Shown: piece by piece, positions 5,861 to 11,983 of the stretch
Numbering within the stretch: position 1 is the first letter of the stretch
Layout: each line of letters begins with the position of its first letter
From: a virus
Lineage: Duplodnaviria > Heunggongvirae > Uroviricota > Caudoviricetes
Strand: one strand, 5' to 3'
DNA: 18,533 nt
Virus record (IMG/VR): IMGVR_UViG_2541047722_000018
Span: 1-18,533 of that record
Position numbers and translations under genes: made by a program
Notes under the pieces: model-generated
The model's input: the letters and a program-made list of their open reading frames with translations, nothing else
Told to the model about the DNA's origin: nothing
Database searches by the model: none

Positions 5861-8647
5861 ATGAGCACGAAATTTAAAACCGTTATCACTACTGCCGGAG
5901 CCGCAAAGCTGGCAGCCGCCACTGTCCCCGGCGGGAAAAAAGTAAACCTGTCTGCAATGGCCGTGGGTGACGGTAATGGCAAATTGCCGGTGCCGGATGC
6001 CGGTCAGACGAAACTGGTGCATGAGGTCTGGCGTCACGCTCTGAATAAAGTCAGCGTGGATAACAAGAATAAAAACTATATCGTGGCTGAACTGGTTGTA
6101 CCGCCAGAAGTGGGCGGCTTCTGGATGCGTGAACTTGGTCTGTATGACGATGCCGGAACACTGATTGCGGTATCCAACATGGCAGAAAGCTATAAGCCAG
6201 AACTGGCTGAAGGCTCCGGACGTGCGCAGACCTGCCGCATGGTTATTATTCTCAGCAACGTGGCGTCCGTTGAGCTGAGTATTGATGCCAGCACGGTGAT
6301 GGCGACGCAGGATTACGTCGATGACAAAATCGCAGAGCATGAGCAGTCCCGCCGCCATCCTGACGCCACGCTGACAGAAAAAGGTTTTACTCAGTTAAGC
6401 AGTGCAACAAACAGCACCAGTGAAAAGCTGGCAGCAACGCCAAAGGCAGTAAAAGCAGCCTATGACAATGCTGAAAAACGTATGCAGAAAGACCAGAACG
6501 GTGGCGATATTCCAGATAAGGGCGCTTTTCTGGACAATGTTGGCGTTACCAGCCTGACGTTTATGAAAAACAATGGCGAAATGCCGCTTGATGCTGATCT
6601 GAATACATTTGGTCCCGTTAAGGCTTATCTGGGGATCTGGTCTAAAGCTACCTCAACTAACGCAACACTGGAGAAAAATTTTCCGGAAGATAATGCTGTC
6701 GGTGTGCTTGAGGTTTTTGCTGCCGGCAATTTTGCAGGTACGCAACGCTTCACCACGAGAGACGGCAATGTATACATACGCAGACTCGCCAATAAGTGGA
6801 ATGGCTCTGATGGTCCGTGGGGCATATGGCGTCACACTCAATCAGCTACCCGCCCTTTGAGTACGACTATAGACCTGAATACGCTTGGAGCCGCCGAACA
6901 TCTTGGTTTATGGCGTAACAGTAGCTCGGCTATAGCTTCATATGAACGCAATTATCCAGAGGAAGGCGGCTTTGCTCAGGGGATGCTTGAGATCCTCGAA
7001 GGCGGGAATTATGGAAGAACGCAACGTTATACCACTCGCCGTGGAAATATGTATGTCCGCTGCCTTGCGGCAAGCTGGGATGTATCAAATCCGCAGTGGG
7101 AACCGTGGTTAAGAGTCGGTCATCAGTCAGAGAGTCGTTATTACGAAGGTGATTTAAATGTTCTAACCGACCCCGGTATTTACAGTGTTACAGGAAAGGC
7201 AACAAACGGTCCGATGCTGGACACCGTTGGCGCGACACTACTTGGGATACTGGAAGTAATCAGACGTTTTGATGGTGTGTCTGTCTGGCAGCGTTACACA
7301 ACCACAGGGAAATCAGAAACCACACAGGGACGCACTTTTGAGCGCGTCTACGCCGGGAGCAAATGGACCGAATGGCGAGAAGTATATAACTCCTTTTCGT
7401 TGCCTCTGAATCTGGGCATCGGTGGCGCAGTGGCAAAACTATCCAGTCTGGACTGGCAGACCTACGATTTTGTGCCGGGCAGTCTGATAACCGTGCGGCT
7501 TGATAACATGACCAACATTCCCGACGGTATGGACTGGGGCGTCATTGATGGCAACCTGATAAACATCGCAGTTGGTCCGAGTGATGATTCCGGTACGGGA
7601 CGCTCAATGCATGTATGGCGAAGCACTGTAAGTAAAGCCAACTACCGCTTTTTTATGGTGCGCGTTTCAGGAAATCCGGGAAGCCGCACGATTACAACAA
7701 GACGAGTACCAATCATTGACGAAGCCCAGACATGGGGCGCGAAACAGACATTCAGTGCTGGCCTTTCTGGTGAACTGTTCGGCAATGCTGCGACAGCAAC
7801 AAAGCTGAAAACAGCCCGTAAAATTAATAACGTTTCGTTTGATGGAACATCAGATATTAACCTGACGCCTGAAGATATTGGTGCATTGCCAATAACGGGA
7901 GGAACTCTTACCGGCGGTTTAACTGCTGCTGGCGAGATTATTTCCAAATCGGCGAATGGTCTTCGTATTGCCTATGGCAACTATGGATTCTTTATCCGAA
8001 ACGATGGTTCAAGCACATACCTCATGTTGACCAATTCGGGCGACAGCCTGGGAACATGGAATAGTTTAAGGCCGCTTACCATTAATAACGCCAGTGGAGC
8101 TGTTTCTATCGGTAATAGTTTAACTGTTAATGGTGATATAGGAACCAATGCTTGGGTATATGCAAATCGTTTTGCAATTAATAGCAGTACCGGAATGTGG
8201 ATAAATATGCGTGACCAGAATGTTATTTTTGGACGTAATGCGGTATCCACCGATGGTGCTCAGGCATTGTTACGTCAGGACCATGCTGATCGCAAATTTA
8301 TGATTGGTGGTCTGGGGAATAAGCAATTTGGCATCTACATGATTAATAATTCAAGGACAGCCAATGGCACCGATGGTCAGGCGTACATGGATAATAACGG
8401 GAATTGGCTTTGCGGTGCGCAAGTTATTCCCGGCAATTATGGTAATTTTGACTCACGCTATGTGAGAGATGTCAGACTTGGCACACGTGTTGTTCAGACC
8501 ATGCAAAAAGGCGTGATGTATGAAAAATCAGGTCATGTAATCACGGGGCTTGGTATTGTCGGTGAAGTCGATGGTGATGACCCCGCAGTATTCAGACCAA
8601 TACAAAAATACATCAATGGCACATGGTATAACGTCGCACAGGTGTAA
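5861..8647 (+). CDS. H: Tail fibre protein (P2 gpH-like N-terminus, divergent repeat-containing distal region), 928 aa
   Basis: N-terminus MSTKFKTVITTAGAAKLAAA... is the conserved P2-type fibre anchor. It is longer than the 669 aa I recall for P2 H. It has three tandem ~92-aa repeats, a GGTLTGGL motif common in enterobacterial phage fibres, and a visibly more AT-rich distal part. Confidence 0.85.
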   Translation: MSTKFKTVITTAGAAKLAAATVPGGKKVNLSAMAVGDGNGKLPVPDAGQTKLVHEVWRHALNKVSVDNKNKNYIVAELVVPPEVGGFWMRELGLYDDAGTLIAVSNMAESYKPELAEGSGRAQTCRMVIILSNVASVELSIDASTVMATQDYVDDKIAEHEQSRRHPDATLTEKGFTQLSSATNSTSEKLAATPKAVKAAYDNAEKRMQKDQNGGDIPDKGAFLDNVGVTSLTFMKNNGEMPLDADLNTFGPVKAYLGIWSKATSTNATLEKNFPEDNAVGVLEVFAAGNFAGTQRFTTRDGNVYIRRLANKWNGSDGPWGIWRHTQSATRPLSTTIDLNTLGAAEHLGLWRNSSSAIASYERNYPEEGGFAQGMLEILEGGNYGRTQRYTTRRGNMYVRCLAASWDVSNPQWEPWLRVGHQSESRYYEGDLNVLTDPGIYSVTGKATNGPMLDTVGATLLGILEVIRRFDGVSVWQRYTTTGKSETTQGRTFERVYAGSKWTEWREVYNSFSLPLNLGIGGAVAKLSSLDWQTYDFVPGSLITVRLDNMTNIPDGMDWGVIDGNLINIAVGPSDDSGTGRSMHVWRSTVSKANYRFFMVRVSGNPGSRTITTRRVPIIDEAQTWGAKQTFSAGLSGELFGNAATATKLKTARKINNVSFDGTSDINLTPEDIGALPITGGTLTGGLTAAGEIISKSANGLRIAYGNYGFFIRNDGSSTYLMLTNSGDSLGTWNSLRPLTINNASGAVSIGNSLTVNGDIGTNAWVYANRFAINSSTGMWINMRDQNVIFGRNAVSTDGAQALLRQDHADRKFMIGGLGNKQFGIYMINNSRTANGTDGQAYMDNNGNWLCGAQVIPGNYGNFDSRYVRDVRLGTRVVQTMQKGVMYEKSGHVITGLGIVGEVDGDDPAVFRPIQKYINGTWYNVAQV
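6599..7385 (+). repeat. Three tandem ~92-aa (276-279 nt) protein-level repeats inside tail fibre H
   Basis: Repeat units start at 6599, 6875 and 7154, each beginning with an LNT/LNV motif and sharing an ...L(E)VxxxGN(F/Y)xxTQR(F/Y)TTRxGNxYxRxLAxxW... core. Confidence 0.6.
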
Positions 8648-8650
8648 TTT

Positions 8651-9178
8651 ATGCAGCATTTAAAAAATATTACTGCGGGTAATCCAAAAACTGTTGCCCA
8701 ATATCAACTGACAAAAAATTTTGATGTTATCTGGTTATGGTCCGAAGAGGGAAAAAACTGGTATGAGGAAGTAAGTAATTTTCAGGAAGACACGATAAAG
8801 ATTGTTTACGACGAGAATAATATAATTGTCGGCATCACCAGAGATGCTTCAACGCTCAACCCTGAAGGTTTTAGCGTTGTCGAGGTTCCTGATATTACCG
8901 CCAACCGACGTGCTGATGACTCAGGTAAATGGATGTTTAAGGATGGTGCCGTGATTAAGCGGATTTATACGGCAGACGAACAGCAACAACAGGCAGAATC
9001 ACAAAAGGCCGCGTTACTTTCCGAAACCGAATCCGTGATTTTGCCGCTGGAGCGCGCTGTCAGGCTGAATATGGCAACAGATGAGGAGCGCAGTCGACTG
9101 GAAGCATGGGAACGCTACAGCGTTCTGGTCAGTCGTGTGGATCCTGCAAATCCTGAATGGCCGGAAATGCCGCAATAA
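8651..9178 (+). CDS. G: Tail fibre assembly protein / chaperone (P2 gpG, Tfa family), 175 aa
   Basis: Directly after H; size as P2 G; AT-rich like the distal part of H; ends ...[12 protein letters not shown]. Confidence 0.8.
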
Positions 9179-9331
9179 GTTGTATGAGCTCTGGTGGGAG
9201 CTTACATATCTATGGCACAGAGTAAAGCCTAATCTGACAGTCCGCTCTGTGCTAGGAGCGGACATTGTTGCCATCTATCTGCATAAATCTGTGGGGAGCT
9301 GCTCACTTGTGGGGAATGAGTCCTCAACTGT

Positions 9332-9360
9332 TTGCGTTTATAAACACAATCCTTTAGATT
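9332..9360 (+). promoter_or_regulatory. Candidate sigma70 promoter for the cargo ORF
   Basis: TTGCGT (9332-9337), 17-nt spacer, TAGATT (9355-9360), about 30 nt upstream of the cargo start; each hexamer matches consensus at 4/6 only. Confidence 0.3.
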
Positions 9361-9390
9361 CTCTCCTACTATCTACTAAAATTTTATCTA

Positions 9391-10518
9391 GTGAAAATGC
9401 CCAATAATCATATGTATGCAAGTCTACTGTCTTACAAAAACTTAAAGATGGCACATCAAGGAAGTAACTTACGGTCTATTACTGAGTTTTCTCTCTATTC
9501 AGATAGTCAACCAATTGGGGCGGTTGATGATGATTCAGTTTATTGTTTTCTGAATATGTTACCCAGGATAACCAAACAATCCACCGTTGCATCTTCAATT
9601 ACAGTGCGCACAAAGTGGTATAGTGACTTAAATAATATGATTCTTTCTAGTTCTCAGAGTCATACAAAGGATTATCATGGTGGATGGTATAATGATGAAA
9701 TAGCTGCGCTTTCAAGTTTACTGCTTGGTGTCCGTTTTCATGCTGGGTCAATTACTCGTCACTATGATTACTACACAGGTGATTTCGGAAGGATCCAAGC
9801 GGAGAGTTCTTTTCCTCCCGTTTTAGAGTTTAAACATAACAAACCTATAGTTCCTAATGCTATCAAAGAAATTGATATAACTAACCTTAAAGAGCTTAAC
9901 AATTTACATCTCTTAAGTGAAAAGAATTTCAACCATTTAATTAGAGCAGCCAGAAGCTATCAAAATGCATTATGGATATGCGAGTCATCTCCAAATATGA
10001 GTTGGCTATTGATGGTGTCAGCCCTAGAATGTGCGGCTAATCAATGGGCAAAATCCAATGCGTCTAAAGAAGAAAGATTTAAACATGCCAAGCCTGAATT
10101 ATATGAAAAATTAGATACCAATGAATTTAGACATTTAATCTCTATTATTGCTAATGAGTTTAAAGATTCATTTGGGGCGACAAAGAAGTTTGTGGATTTC
10201 TGCCTGTATTTCCTTCCAGATGAACCTCAAGTGAGGCCAAAAGTAGGAAGAATTGATTGGGGAAAAGAATCGCTATCAACAACTTTTAAAAAAATATATA
10301 ACTACCGTTCTAAGGCATTGCATGGAGGACAACCATTTCCTGAGCCGATGTGTTCCTATCCTGAAGTATGGGATGGGTATATTGCTGAACGAGCGAGAGC
10401 ATGTTCAACCTTAGGTGGAACGTGGTTGAATGAAGATGTGCCAATTAATTTAAATACATTCAACTTTATGACCCATTCCATTTTGAATAAGTGGTGGCAA
10501 TCTTTATTACCAAGTTAA
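9391..10518 (+). CDS. Hypothetical protein, cargo gene at the G/FI variable locus; candidate anti-phage defence protein (possible C-terminal HEPN-like R-x4-H motif), up to 375 aa
   Basis: Single long ORF in an AT-rich island: hand count 20/60 G+C at its 5' end versus 33/60 at the start of FI. Start uncertain (GTG 9391, ATG 9397 or downstream ATGs; no strong SD). No transmembrane segments or P-loop seen. Occupies the P2 Z/fun position. Confidence 0.6.
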   Translation: MKMPNNHMYASLLSYKNLKMAHQGSNLRSITEFSLYSDSQPIGAVDDDSVYCFLNMLPRITKQSTVASSITVRTKWYSDLNNMILSSSQSHTKDYHGGWYNDEIAALSSLLLGVRFHAGSITRHYDYYTGDFGRIQAESSFPPVLEFKHNKPIVPNAIKEIDITNLKELNNLHLLSEKNFNHLIRAARSYQNALWICESSPNMSWLLMVSALECAANQWAKSNASKEERFKHAKPELYEKLDTNEFRHLISIIANEFKDSFGATKKFVDFCLYFLPDEPQVRPKVGRIDWGKESLSTTFKKIYNYRSKALHGGQPFPEPMCSYPEVWDGYIAERARACSTLGGTWLNEDVPINLNTFNFMTHSILNKWWQSLLPS

Positions 10519-10540
10519 CACTGTAAGTATCAGTGTTAAC
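10514..10540. repeat. Perfect 10-bp inverted repeat overlapping the cargo stop codon
   Basis: GTTAACACTG (10514-10523), 7-nt spacer, CAGTGTTAAC (10531-10540). Confidence 0.6.
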
Positions 10541-10609
10541 TGCACCATGTAATTTTATATCTGTACCAGACTGGAGGAAAATGTTCGCTTATCGCTCATT
10601 AGGGTCAAC

Positions 10610-10648
10610 CATACTCAAATCTCTCACATTGCAGGAGATTTGAGTATG
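10610..10648. repeat. Perfect 14-bp inverted repeat with 11-nt spacer
   Basis: CATACTCAAATCTC (10610-10623), spacer tcacattgcag, GAGATTTGAGTATG (10635-10648). Confidence 0.6.
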
Positions 10649-10671
10649 AACACGTCACCGTGGAAGGACTG

Positions 10672-10694
10672 GCGGGCGAATTGCCCGCTTTTTT
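10672..10694 (+). terminator. Rho-independent terminator downstream of the cargo ORF
   Basis: GCGGGC-gaatt-GCCCGC stem-loop followed by TTTTTT on the + strand. Confidence 0.6.
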
Positions 10695-10792
10695 GTATCT
10701 GTTGTTTCATCCACTGACCAGCCAGGTCAAATAGCGTCTCATGCTCTGCACAACAGAAAATAGTTGCACCCATTAACCACGGAGTTAAACGG

Positions 10793-11983
10793 ATGAGTGA
10801 CTATCATCACGGCGTGCAGGTGCTGGAGATTAACGACGGCACCCGCGTCATTTCCACCGTATCCACCGCCATTGTTGGCATGGTCTGCACGGCCAGCGAT
10901 GCGGATGCGGAAACCTTCCCCGTCAATAAACCGGTGCTGATCACCAATGTGCAGAGCGCGATTGCAAAGGCCGGTAAAAAAGGTACGCTGGCGGCATCGT
11001 TGCAGGCCATCGCTGACCAGTCAAAACCGGTCACCGTTGTCGTGCGCGTGGAAGACGGCACCGGCGACGACGAAGAAACGAAACTCGCGCAGACCGTTTC
11101 CAATATCATCGGCACCACTGACGAAAACGGTCAGTACACCGGACTGAAAGCCCTGATGGGCGCAGAGTCGGTTACCGGCGTTAAACCGCGCATTCTCGGC
11201 GTACCGGGACTGGACACCAAAGAGGTGGCGGTTGCACTGGCATCGGTATGCCAGGAACTGAATGCCTTCGGGTATATCAGCGCATGGGGCTGTAAAACCA
11301 TTTCCGAGGCAAAAGCCTACCGTCAGAATTTCAGTCAGCGTGAGCTGATGGTCATCTGGCCGGATTTCCTTGCATGGGATACGGTCACCAGTACCACCGC
11401 CACCGCGTATGCCACCGCCCGTGCGCTGGGGCTGCGTGCCAAAATCGACCAGGAGCAGGGCTGGCATAAAACGCTGTCCAACGTCGGGGTAAACGGTGTT
11501 ACCGGCATCAGCGCATCTGTATTCTGGGATTTGCAGAAGTCTGGCACTGATGCTGACCTGCTGAACGAGGCAGGCGTCACAACGCTGGTTCGCCGCGACG
11601 GTTTCCGTTTCTGGGGTAACCGTACCTGCTCCGATGACCCACTTTTCCTCTTTGAAAGCTACACACGTACCGCGCAGGTACTGGCCGACACGATGGCTGA
11701 GGCGCACATGTGGGCTATTGATAAGCCCATCACCGCAACGCTGATTCGCGACATCATTGATGGCATCAATGCCAAATTCCGCGAACTGAAAAACAACGGT
11801 TATATCGTGGATGGCACATGCTGGTTCAGTGAAGAAGCCAACGATGCGGAAACCCTCAAGGCCGGAAAACTGTATATCGACTACGACTATACACCGGTGC
11901 CTCCTCTCGAAAACCTGACCCTGCGCCAGCGTATTACTTCAAGATACCTGGCAAGTCTGGTCACCTCGGTTAACAGCAATTAA
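10793..11983 (+). CDS. FI: Contractile tail sheath protein (P2 gpFI-like), 396 aa
   Basis: GGAG RBS before the ATG; size and order as P2 FI; first gene of the FI-FII-E-T-U-D operon. Confidence 0.9.
   Translation: MSDYHHGVQVLEINDGTRVISTVSTAIVGMVCTASDADAETFPVNKPVLITNVQSAIAKAGKKGTLAASLQAIADQSKPVTVVVRVEDGTGDDEETKLAQTVSNIIGTTDENGQYTGLKALMGAESVTGVKPRILGVPGLDTKEVAVALASVCQELNAFGYISAWGCKTISEAKAYRQNFSQRELMVIWPDFLAWDTVTSTTATAYATARALGLRAKIDQEQGWHKTLSNVGVNGVTGISASVFWDLQKSGTDADLLNEAGVTTLVRRDGFRFWGNRTCSDDPLFLFESYTRTAQVLADTMAEAHMWAIDKPITATLIRDIIDGINAKFRELKNNGYIVDGTCWFSEEANDAETLKAGKLYIDYDYTPVPPLENLTLRQRITSRYLASLVTSVNSN

Follow-up and report, generated by a model that had tools for sequence, protein, structure and literature searches.

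A lineage-specific palindrome on the stop codon of a foreign cargo gene, inside a cassette bounded by two other palindromes, in the Z/fun hotspot of a P2-like phage

The window analysed here, a stretch of 18,533 nucleotides from an IMG/VR virus record, covers late genes of a P2-like phage (Peduovirus), with positions 8651-11300 being 99.9% identical to Yersinia phage vB_YpM_22, Escherichia phage vB_EcoM-720R8, and the prophages of E. coli N21 and N54. P2-like phages have a classical variable hotspot, Z/fun, in the interval between genes G and FI (PMC9122126; bioRxiv 10.1101/2024.10.15.618418), and in this phage it holds a cargo gene together with the elements listed in Table 1. The cargo protein had no match in Pfam, PADLOC or NCBIfam, and has at least 200 homologues across Enterobacterales and metagenomes, one of which (50% identical) carries the UniRef name 'Apea-like HEPN domain-containing protein'. 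Genes for these homologues often adjoin integrases, tRNA fragments, or AbiTii, AbiGi or YaaC genes. The cargo is likely an uncharacterised defence gene. Small open reading frames within 10581-10720 (20 and 23 aa) are not conserved, the second being the start of the recombinase gene, cut short and joined out of frame to the phage backbone. G+C drops to 0.40-0.47 over the 3' part of H and over G (window positions 7600-9000), ahead of the lower values in the cargo, and the similarity of H and G to other P2-likes is patchy (80-95%), with some relatives aligning only from 8589. These shifts suggest that the tail fibre's receptor-binding end, along with its chaperone, may have been exchanged as well.

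Table 1. Features in and around the G/FI interval (window coordinates)
Feature	Position	Strand	Description
H, tail fibre	5861-8647		
Gene G, tail fibre assembly	8651-9178	+	Pfam Caudo_TAP E = 1e-34; annotated so in relatives
Spacer after G	9179-9239	+	about 60 nt common to all cargo-bearing P2-likes; absent in cargo-less P37
Site A, left cassette boundary	9240-9263	.	GTCCGCTC-TGTGCTAG-GAGCGGAC; 8-bp arms, 8-bp spacer
Promoter-like site upstream of cargo gene	9353-9382	+	TTTAGA-18-TAAAAT; consensus match only
Cargo open reading frame	9397-10518	+	373 aa from ATG 9397 (GTG at 9391 also open); G+C 0.34-0.39
Inverted repeat	10513-10523 / 10531-10541	+	arms AGTTAACACTG and CAGTGTTAACT; 7-nt loop TAAGTAT; overlaps Ser codon and TAA
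A+U-rich spacer between hairpin and site B	10542-10582	+	41 nt; accompanies hairpin in all three lineages
Site B, right cassette boundary	10583-10606	.	degenerate here, GTTCGCTT-ATCGCTCA-TTAGGGTC; consensus elsewhere GTCCGCTT-yTCGCTCA-AAGCAGAC
14-bp perfect inverted repeat	10610-10648	+	15 pairs as RNA, about -20.5 kcal/mol, z -4.6
Recombinase gene start	10646-10664	+	ATG AAC ACG TCA CCG TGG A; alignment to L014, L016, L024
P2 backbone start (AGGAC...)	10665-10670	.	junction 10664/10665, microhomology at most 1-3 nt
Intrinsic terminator	10671-10697	+	GGCGGGCGAATTGCCCGC + TTTTTTGT; conserved in all P2-likes including cargo-less P37
Gene FI, tail sheath	10793-11983	+	Pfam Phage_sheath_1, Phage_sheath_1C, Gp18_domIII_N

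The element of interest straddles the end of the cargo gene. A first-pass annotation had described it as a perfect 10-bp inverted repeat at 10514-10540 (GTTAACACTG TAAGTAT CAGTGTTAAC) that overlaps the TAA stop codon at 10516-10518 and contains two GTTAAC hexamers, and all of this is borne out: the sequence is as given, the stop codon lies inside the left arm, and the hexamers are at 10514 and 10535. Perfect pairing extends one base further on each side than first noted, giving 11-bp arms, and the stem-loop (11 pairs, 7 loop bases) begins 3 nt ahead of the stop codon, 42 nt to the left of site B (10583). The centres of the two hexamers are 21 bp apart, and GTTAAC occurs six times in the window against about four expected from base composition (our own arithmetic), which is no enrichment. 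When sequences were shuffled with their dinucleotide content preserved, perfect stems of 11 bp or more with loops of 3-12 nt arose by chance in 4% of shuffles of the whole 18.5-kb window, in 0.1% of those of the cargo segment (9179-10670), and in 0.04% of those of positions 10501-10670. The single longer inverted repeat in the window is the 14-bp repeat 70 nt downstream, in the same intergenic stretch.

The first-pass annotation had also proposed that the repeat could mark the right boundary of an acquired segment, or an insertion scar. We aligned the G/FI interval with ten P2-like phages and prophages carrying other cargo, including P2, Wphi, pro147, P22H4, 569R9, and E. coli prophages with SMEK, DUF4145 or unnamed genes, and with the cargo-less Yersinia phage P37. 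In all ten of the other-cargo P2-likes, similarity to the window is lost at 9251-9270 and returns at exactly 10665, and in P37 the equivalent of 10671, at the terminator (GGCGGGCTTATTGTCCGCTTTTTC), comes 6 nt after the G stop codon. Because similarity resumes only at 10665 (10671 in P37), the repeat lies 124 nt inside cargo-specific DNA; across the different cargos it is found at neither junction (breaks at 9251-9270 and 10583/10665), nor is it part of DNA conserved with cargo-less phages, and it belongs to the cargo. A boundary or scar in the phage, which the position of the palindrome at the 3' end of a low-G+C gene might suggest, is refuted by these alignments, with the boundary site at 10583, the backbone junction at 10664/10665, and cargo-specific DNA running on past the repeat over its whole distance to that junction. 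The exception is a Klebsiella plasmid, whose similarity to the window starts 5-8 nt to the left of the repeat, a recombination breakpoint in a single other lineage. All told, the palindrome is tied to the cargo, is lineage-specific, and lies in the 3' end of the foreign cassette.

The cassette boundaries are marked by other palindromes. In cargo-bearing P2-likes, site A takes the form GTCCGCTC-TGTGCyAG-GAGCGGAC (GTCCGCTC-N8-GAGCGGAC), after which the sequences diverge; in Enterobacter islands and Klebsiella plasmids the homologous cassette has the same palindrome at its left edge, and exact matches exist in at least 100 viral contigs whose left flanks are of at least 10 kinds. On the right, cargo-specific sequence in other P2-likes ends at (aat)GTCCGCTTyTCGCTCA-AAGCAGAC, followed by a conserved 71-nt element and then the terminator, and it ends at site B in the plasmid and in chromosomal islands as well. 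The window's own degenerate site B reads GTTCGCTTATCGCTCA at 10583, a GTCCGCTTnTCGCTCA-type site (10583-10598). Pairs of A and B bracket unrelated genes in P2-likes, in other prophage backgrounds, in the Klebsiella plasmid (in tandem), in E. coli chromosomal islands, in Enterobacter islands, and in viral contigs, where the A-to-B distance is 0.5-4 kb (loci L043-L122). The genes flanked by these sites (A, GTCCGCTy-TGTGCCAG-rAGCGGAC; B, GTCCGCTT-yTCGCTCA-AAGCAGAC) are mostly defence-like, and site positions outside the window include 1732, 3079 and 3893 in locus L013, 1901, 3001 and 5933 in locus L015, and 3842 in locus L024. A 24-bp site with 8-bp arms and an 8-bp spacer has the geometry typical of tyrosine-recombinase core sites. 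Sites A and B, which sit at similarity breakpoints, are presumably the flanking inverted repeats that, as summarised in PMC8987985, Nilsson, Karlsson & Haggard-Ljungquist (2004) proposed to mediate site-specific exchange; two recent hotspot surveys that we searched, PMC9122126 and PMC13586616, name no site-specific route for these exchanges. Phage P37 (2029-2060 of locus L003, against window 10665-10697) is a natural empty site, and the descending arm and T-run of its terminator (GTCCGCTTTTT) resembles the GTCCGCTT core of sites A and B. From its sequence, the backbone terminator might itself be the target of cassette insertion.

To the right of the repeat, the 85 nt at 10580-10664 are 88-94% identical to a segment that 919 of 5426 complete E. 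coli genomes carry, and in the E. coli loci inspected this segment comprises site B, the 14-bp inverted repeat, and then the ribosome-binding site (RBS) and first codons (MNTSPW...) of a recombinase gene. The product is a 200-aa tyrosine recombinase of the Xer/Fim-like type, not IntI (Pfam Phage_integrase, E = 4e-18; below every NCBIfam cut-off). Intact examples include WP_001324664.1 and WP_001305361.1, and the gene directly follows variable genes that look defence-like (adenosine deaminase with an NTPase and SIR2; dGTPase; AbiGi). The match to the recombinase segment stops at 10663/10664, exactly where the P2 backbone starts, and therefore the phage cassette, as judged by alignment, still carries the recombinase upstream region and the first 19 nt of the gene, truncated at the 10664/10665 backbone junction. 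The right arm of the 14-bp repeat (GAGATTTGAGTATG) covers the Shine-Dalgarno sequence and ATG of this remnant, and in intact loci the repeat could hide the recombinase RBS on read-through transcripts, by analogy with some insertion sequences. At the corresponding point of their 71-nt element, ordinary P2-likes have another inverted repeat, imperfect and 19 bp long.

The occurrence of the stop-codon repeat elsewhere was followed by exact-pattern scans of genome, viral and metagenome collections, and by BLAST searches against phages, plasmids and E. coli genomes. All six P2-type copies have an identical repeat; among the 5426 E. coli genomes it was found only in five with this cassette, plus one plasmid, and in the metagenome scan only in the P2-type cassette and Klebsiella plasmid contexts. 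The scan of 185,579 species genomes yielded just two unrelated exact matches, and that of viral contigs no unrelated ones. The remaining matches, in Omnitrophota, Sedimenticolaceae and some metagenome contigs, appear to be due to chance, their flanks being unrelated. Only three lineages thus have the repeat, it being perfect in the P2-type cassette and in a Klebsiella plasmid relic, and broken in an Enterobacter island.

The Klebsiella plasmids (20 records of one lineage), together with two metagenome contigs, carry a perfect 10-bp version. Plasmid similarity to the window runs from the repeat through the 41-nt spacer into site B, and upstream of the repeat stands an unrelated two-gene cassette with its own site A and its own strong intrinsic terminator. 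In pJtgc-02-p2 (L013 1700-3120) and 19 further Klebsiella plasmids, the order is site A, open reading frames of 94 and 142 aa, the terminator, and then the relic; a second site A follows 800 nt further on in the L013 plasmid, beside a DEAD/DEAH helicase gene. We regard the plasmid segment as a relic of a replaced cargo because the last three cargo codons are retained. These sequences also provide evidence that A/B cassettes occur on conjugative plasmids.

The closest non-phage copy of the cargo is in the Enterobacter islands, with 97% protein identity, where the order is site A, cargo, a convergent AbiGi gene, site B, recombinase, and queH. The window corresponds to this island minus a 1.3-kb segment containing AbiGi, with the similarity blocks overlapping at 10586-10590, within the TCCGCTT core. 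Between cargo and AbiGi the island has an A/B-armed hairpin with a 5-nt spacer (GTCCGCTT-TGAAA-AAGCGGAC; L024 5187-5207), which doubles as the AbiGi terminator, and the window-type cassette equals the island with everything from this core to site B deleted. The right arm of the Enterobacter repeat is a natural variant, GTGTTAAC having become GTGAAAAC; with this TT to AA change (CAGTGAAAAC) only 8 of 10 pairs form and the fold is weak (-6.1 kcal/mol, z -1.0), the gene being intact. The plasmid groups with the Enterobacter copy at five spacer positions, yet has the perfect arm of the phage. Most parsimoniously, the perfect repeat would be ancestral and the change a loss in the Enterobacter lineage, with the outgroups (L020, L038) too diverged to polarise it. 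Formation of the perfect stem by template-switch correction of a quasi-palindrome was considered and is not supported, as the perfect form looks ancestral.

Beyond these three lineages the hairpin does not recur. Cargo homologues at 70-84% protein identity have unrelated 3' flanks that fold like shuffles (z -0.07 to +0.84), and we rejected the idea that a stop-codon hairpin is kept throughout the gene family, since stems in other lineages reach only 5-6 bp, which is no improvement on shuffles. We likewise rejected a 3' hairpin before site B as a feature of every cassette. Over about 50 distinct A...B cassettes, the best perfect stem within the last 120 nt ahead of site B averaged 5.2 bp, against 5.1 bp in controls from cassette interiors, in a set containing some reverse-strand duplicates, as the reverse complement of B resembles A once mismatches are allowed. 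Only two stood apart, the window with 11 bp and the plasmid relic with 10 bp.

As RNA, the hairpin has a predicted free energy of -14.3 kcal/mol (z = -3.9), with none of 200 shuffles folding as well, and the 201-nt 3' region folds as independent hairpins, namely the 10513-10541 repeat, the 14-bp repeat, and the terminator. Rfam 15 covariance models matched neither strand of 9100-10850 at E <= 1. Like an intrinsic terminator, the hairpin directly follows or overlaps a stop codon, but its stem is A+T-rich, with 4 of 11 pairs being G-C, no U-tract occurs within 8 nt (downstream GCACCATGTAATTTT; GCACCATG), and our scan did not call it, the sole site called being 10671-10689. The criteria were a T run 0-2 nt after the stem and, in the scan, at least three G-C pairs, a rule that the stem alone would pass. 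With no U-tract following, the stem A+T-rich, and no call by the scan, we ruled out an intrinsic terminator.

Other known classes of palindrome fit less well. Comparison with integron attC sites was by eye, from the sequence and textbook consensus sequences: the repeat is a palindrome right after a cassette open reading frame, and GTTAAC resembles the GTTRRRY and RYYYAAC cores, but it is 29 bp long against 57-141 bp for attC, AGTTAAC mismatches RYYYAAC at position 2, GTTAACT mismatches GTTRRRY at position 6, and it lacks extrahelical bases, an IntI and an array of similar sites. An attC-like element was rejected on length and core sequences, with no adjacent IntI, and a REP/BIME-type repeated palindrome was rejected because the repeat is not multi-copy in genomes. 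With sites A and B it shares the hotspot and its palindromic character, but it has another sequence, sits inside the cassette, and is specific to one cargo; the motif GTCCGCTy-N8-rAGCrGAC matches the window only at 9240 and 10583, and the repeat has no similarity to it.

In E. coli, 3' stem-loops (REP-type and terminator-less hairpins) stabilise mRNAs against 3'-to-5' exonucleases, with RNase II and PNPase being slowed by stable 3' stem-loops. The repeat resembles these elements in forming a stable, isolated stem-loop just downstream of an open reading frame on the transcribed strand, free of a U-tract. It differs from them in being single-copy with no repeated family, in not being conserved or covarying with the gene (no compensatory changes were found among homologues), and in having a true terminator 130 nt downstream. 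A 3' stabilising hairpin had been the alternative offered in the first-pass annotation, and it survives in part: the RNA fold is stable and unambiguous, but it is not conserved in homologues, and is broken where the Enterobacter gene is intact.

The reading we favour, tentatively and at a little under an even chance, is that the repeat is a lineage-specific mRNA 3' stem-loop with a modest, dispensable stabilising role. The hairpin would not terminate transcription, and cargo transcripts, along with read-through from the G operon, would run on to the backbone terminator at 10671-10697. A cut by an endonuclease within the A+U-rich, single-stranded spacer would then leave the hairpin to block 3'-to-5' exonucleases, which would give the cargo message a protected 3' end. 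Of this reading, the analysis shows the fold and the position, and the remaining steps draw on general knowledge of E. coli mRNA decay. Since the perfect stem has been lost in a sister lineage whose gene is intact, any stabilising effect would be dispensable. The strength and independence of the fold (z -3.9) and its identity in the six P2-type copies count in favour of a stabilising stem-loop. Counting against it are the unrelated flanks of homologues at 70-84% identity, the broken Enterobacter stem beside a cargo 97% identical, the equality of pre-site-B stems and interior controls in about 50 cassettes, and the backbone terminator, which already supplies a 3' hairpin.

The main rival explanation, less likely but to be taken seriously, is that the palindrome is functionless, a neutral quasi-palindrome that happens to be perfect in some lineages and drifts in others, with no role in RNA or DNA. 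The stem is broken in the Enterobacter lineage despite the intact gene, the repeat is absent from more distant homologues, the hairpin is not a general cassette feature, and the plasmid relic stands behind unrelated genes with their own intrinsic terminator. Between phage and plasmid, none of six mismatches falls in the repeat (32 of 90 nt), which is not significant (hypergeometric P of about 0.065, own arithmetic). What neutrality does not readily accommodate is that an 11-bp perfect stem is improbable at this place (0.04% of shuffles), and that the stem is perfect in two lineages differing at 6 of 58 neighbouring positions.

A role in DNA, either as a recombination-prone spot or as an accessory part of the right cassette site, with the unit of repeat, 41 nt and site B being re-used, would fit the Klebsiella plasmid, where similarity starts 5-8 nt to the left of the repeat and continues through site B, after an unrelated cassette led by site A. 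We consider such a role decidedly unlikely, as only one such event is seen, nothing comparable precedes site B in about 50 other cassettes, the repeat lacks sequence similarity to sites A and B, and the plasmid keeps the last three cargo codons, which looks like a relic of deletion or replacement. A more ambitious version would make the repeat a working part of an integron-like mover of defence genes, in which palindrome, 41 nt and site B form an extended recombination or exchange module, and the small tyrosine recombinase (200 aa), its gene start present in truncated form 105 nt beyond the repeat, would swap new cargo in front of the module. If true, this would explain why the Klebsiella plasmid keeps exactly the repeat, the 41 nt and site B behind unrelated genes; we give it an even smaller chance. 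Least probable of the regulatory and recombination roles is an operator for a dimeric DNA-binding protein, suggested by the geometry of two GTTAAC palindromes 21 bp, or two helical turns, apart, since no promoter-like site overlaps the repeat on either strand, the cassette has no regulator gene, the repeat is not conserved, and GTTAAC is not enriched in the window.

The hairpin itself, an ordinary feature, would at most fine-tune one uncharacterised, probably defensive, prophage gene, and the cassette architecture with its recombinase remnant is of more interest. What delimits the foreign DNA at this hotspot is a pair of other short palindromes, found again around a variety of genes on phages, plasmids and chromosomes. 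This recurrence, together with the recombinase remnant, supports a site-specific route by which defence genes may be swapped among bacterial chromosomes, plasmids and P2-like phages, a route of the kind that, according to the summary in PMC8987985, Nilsson and co-workers proposed in 2004.
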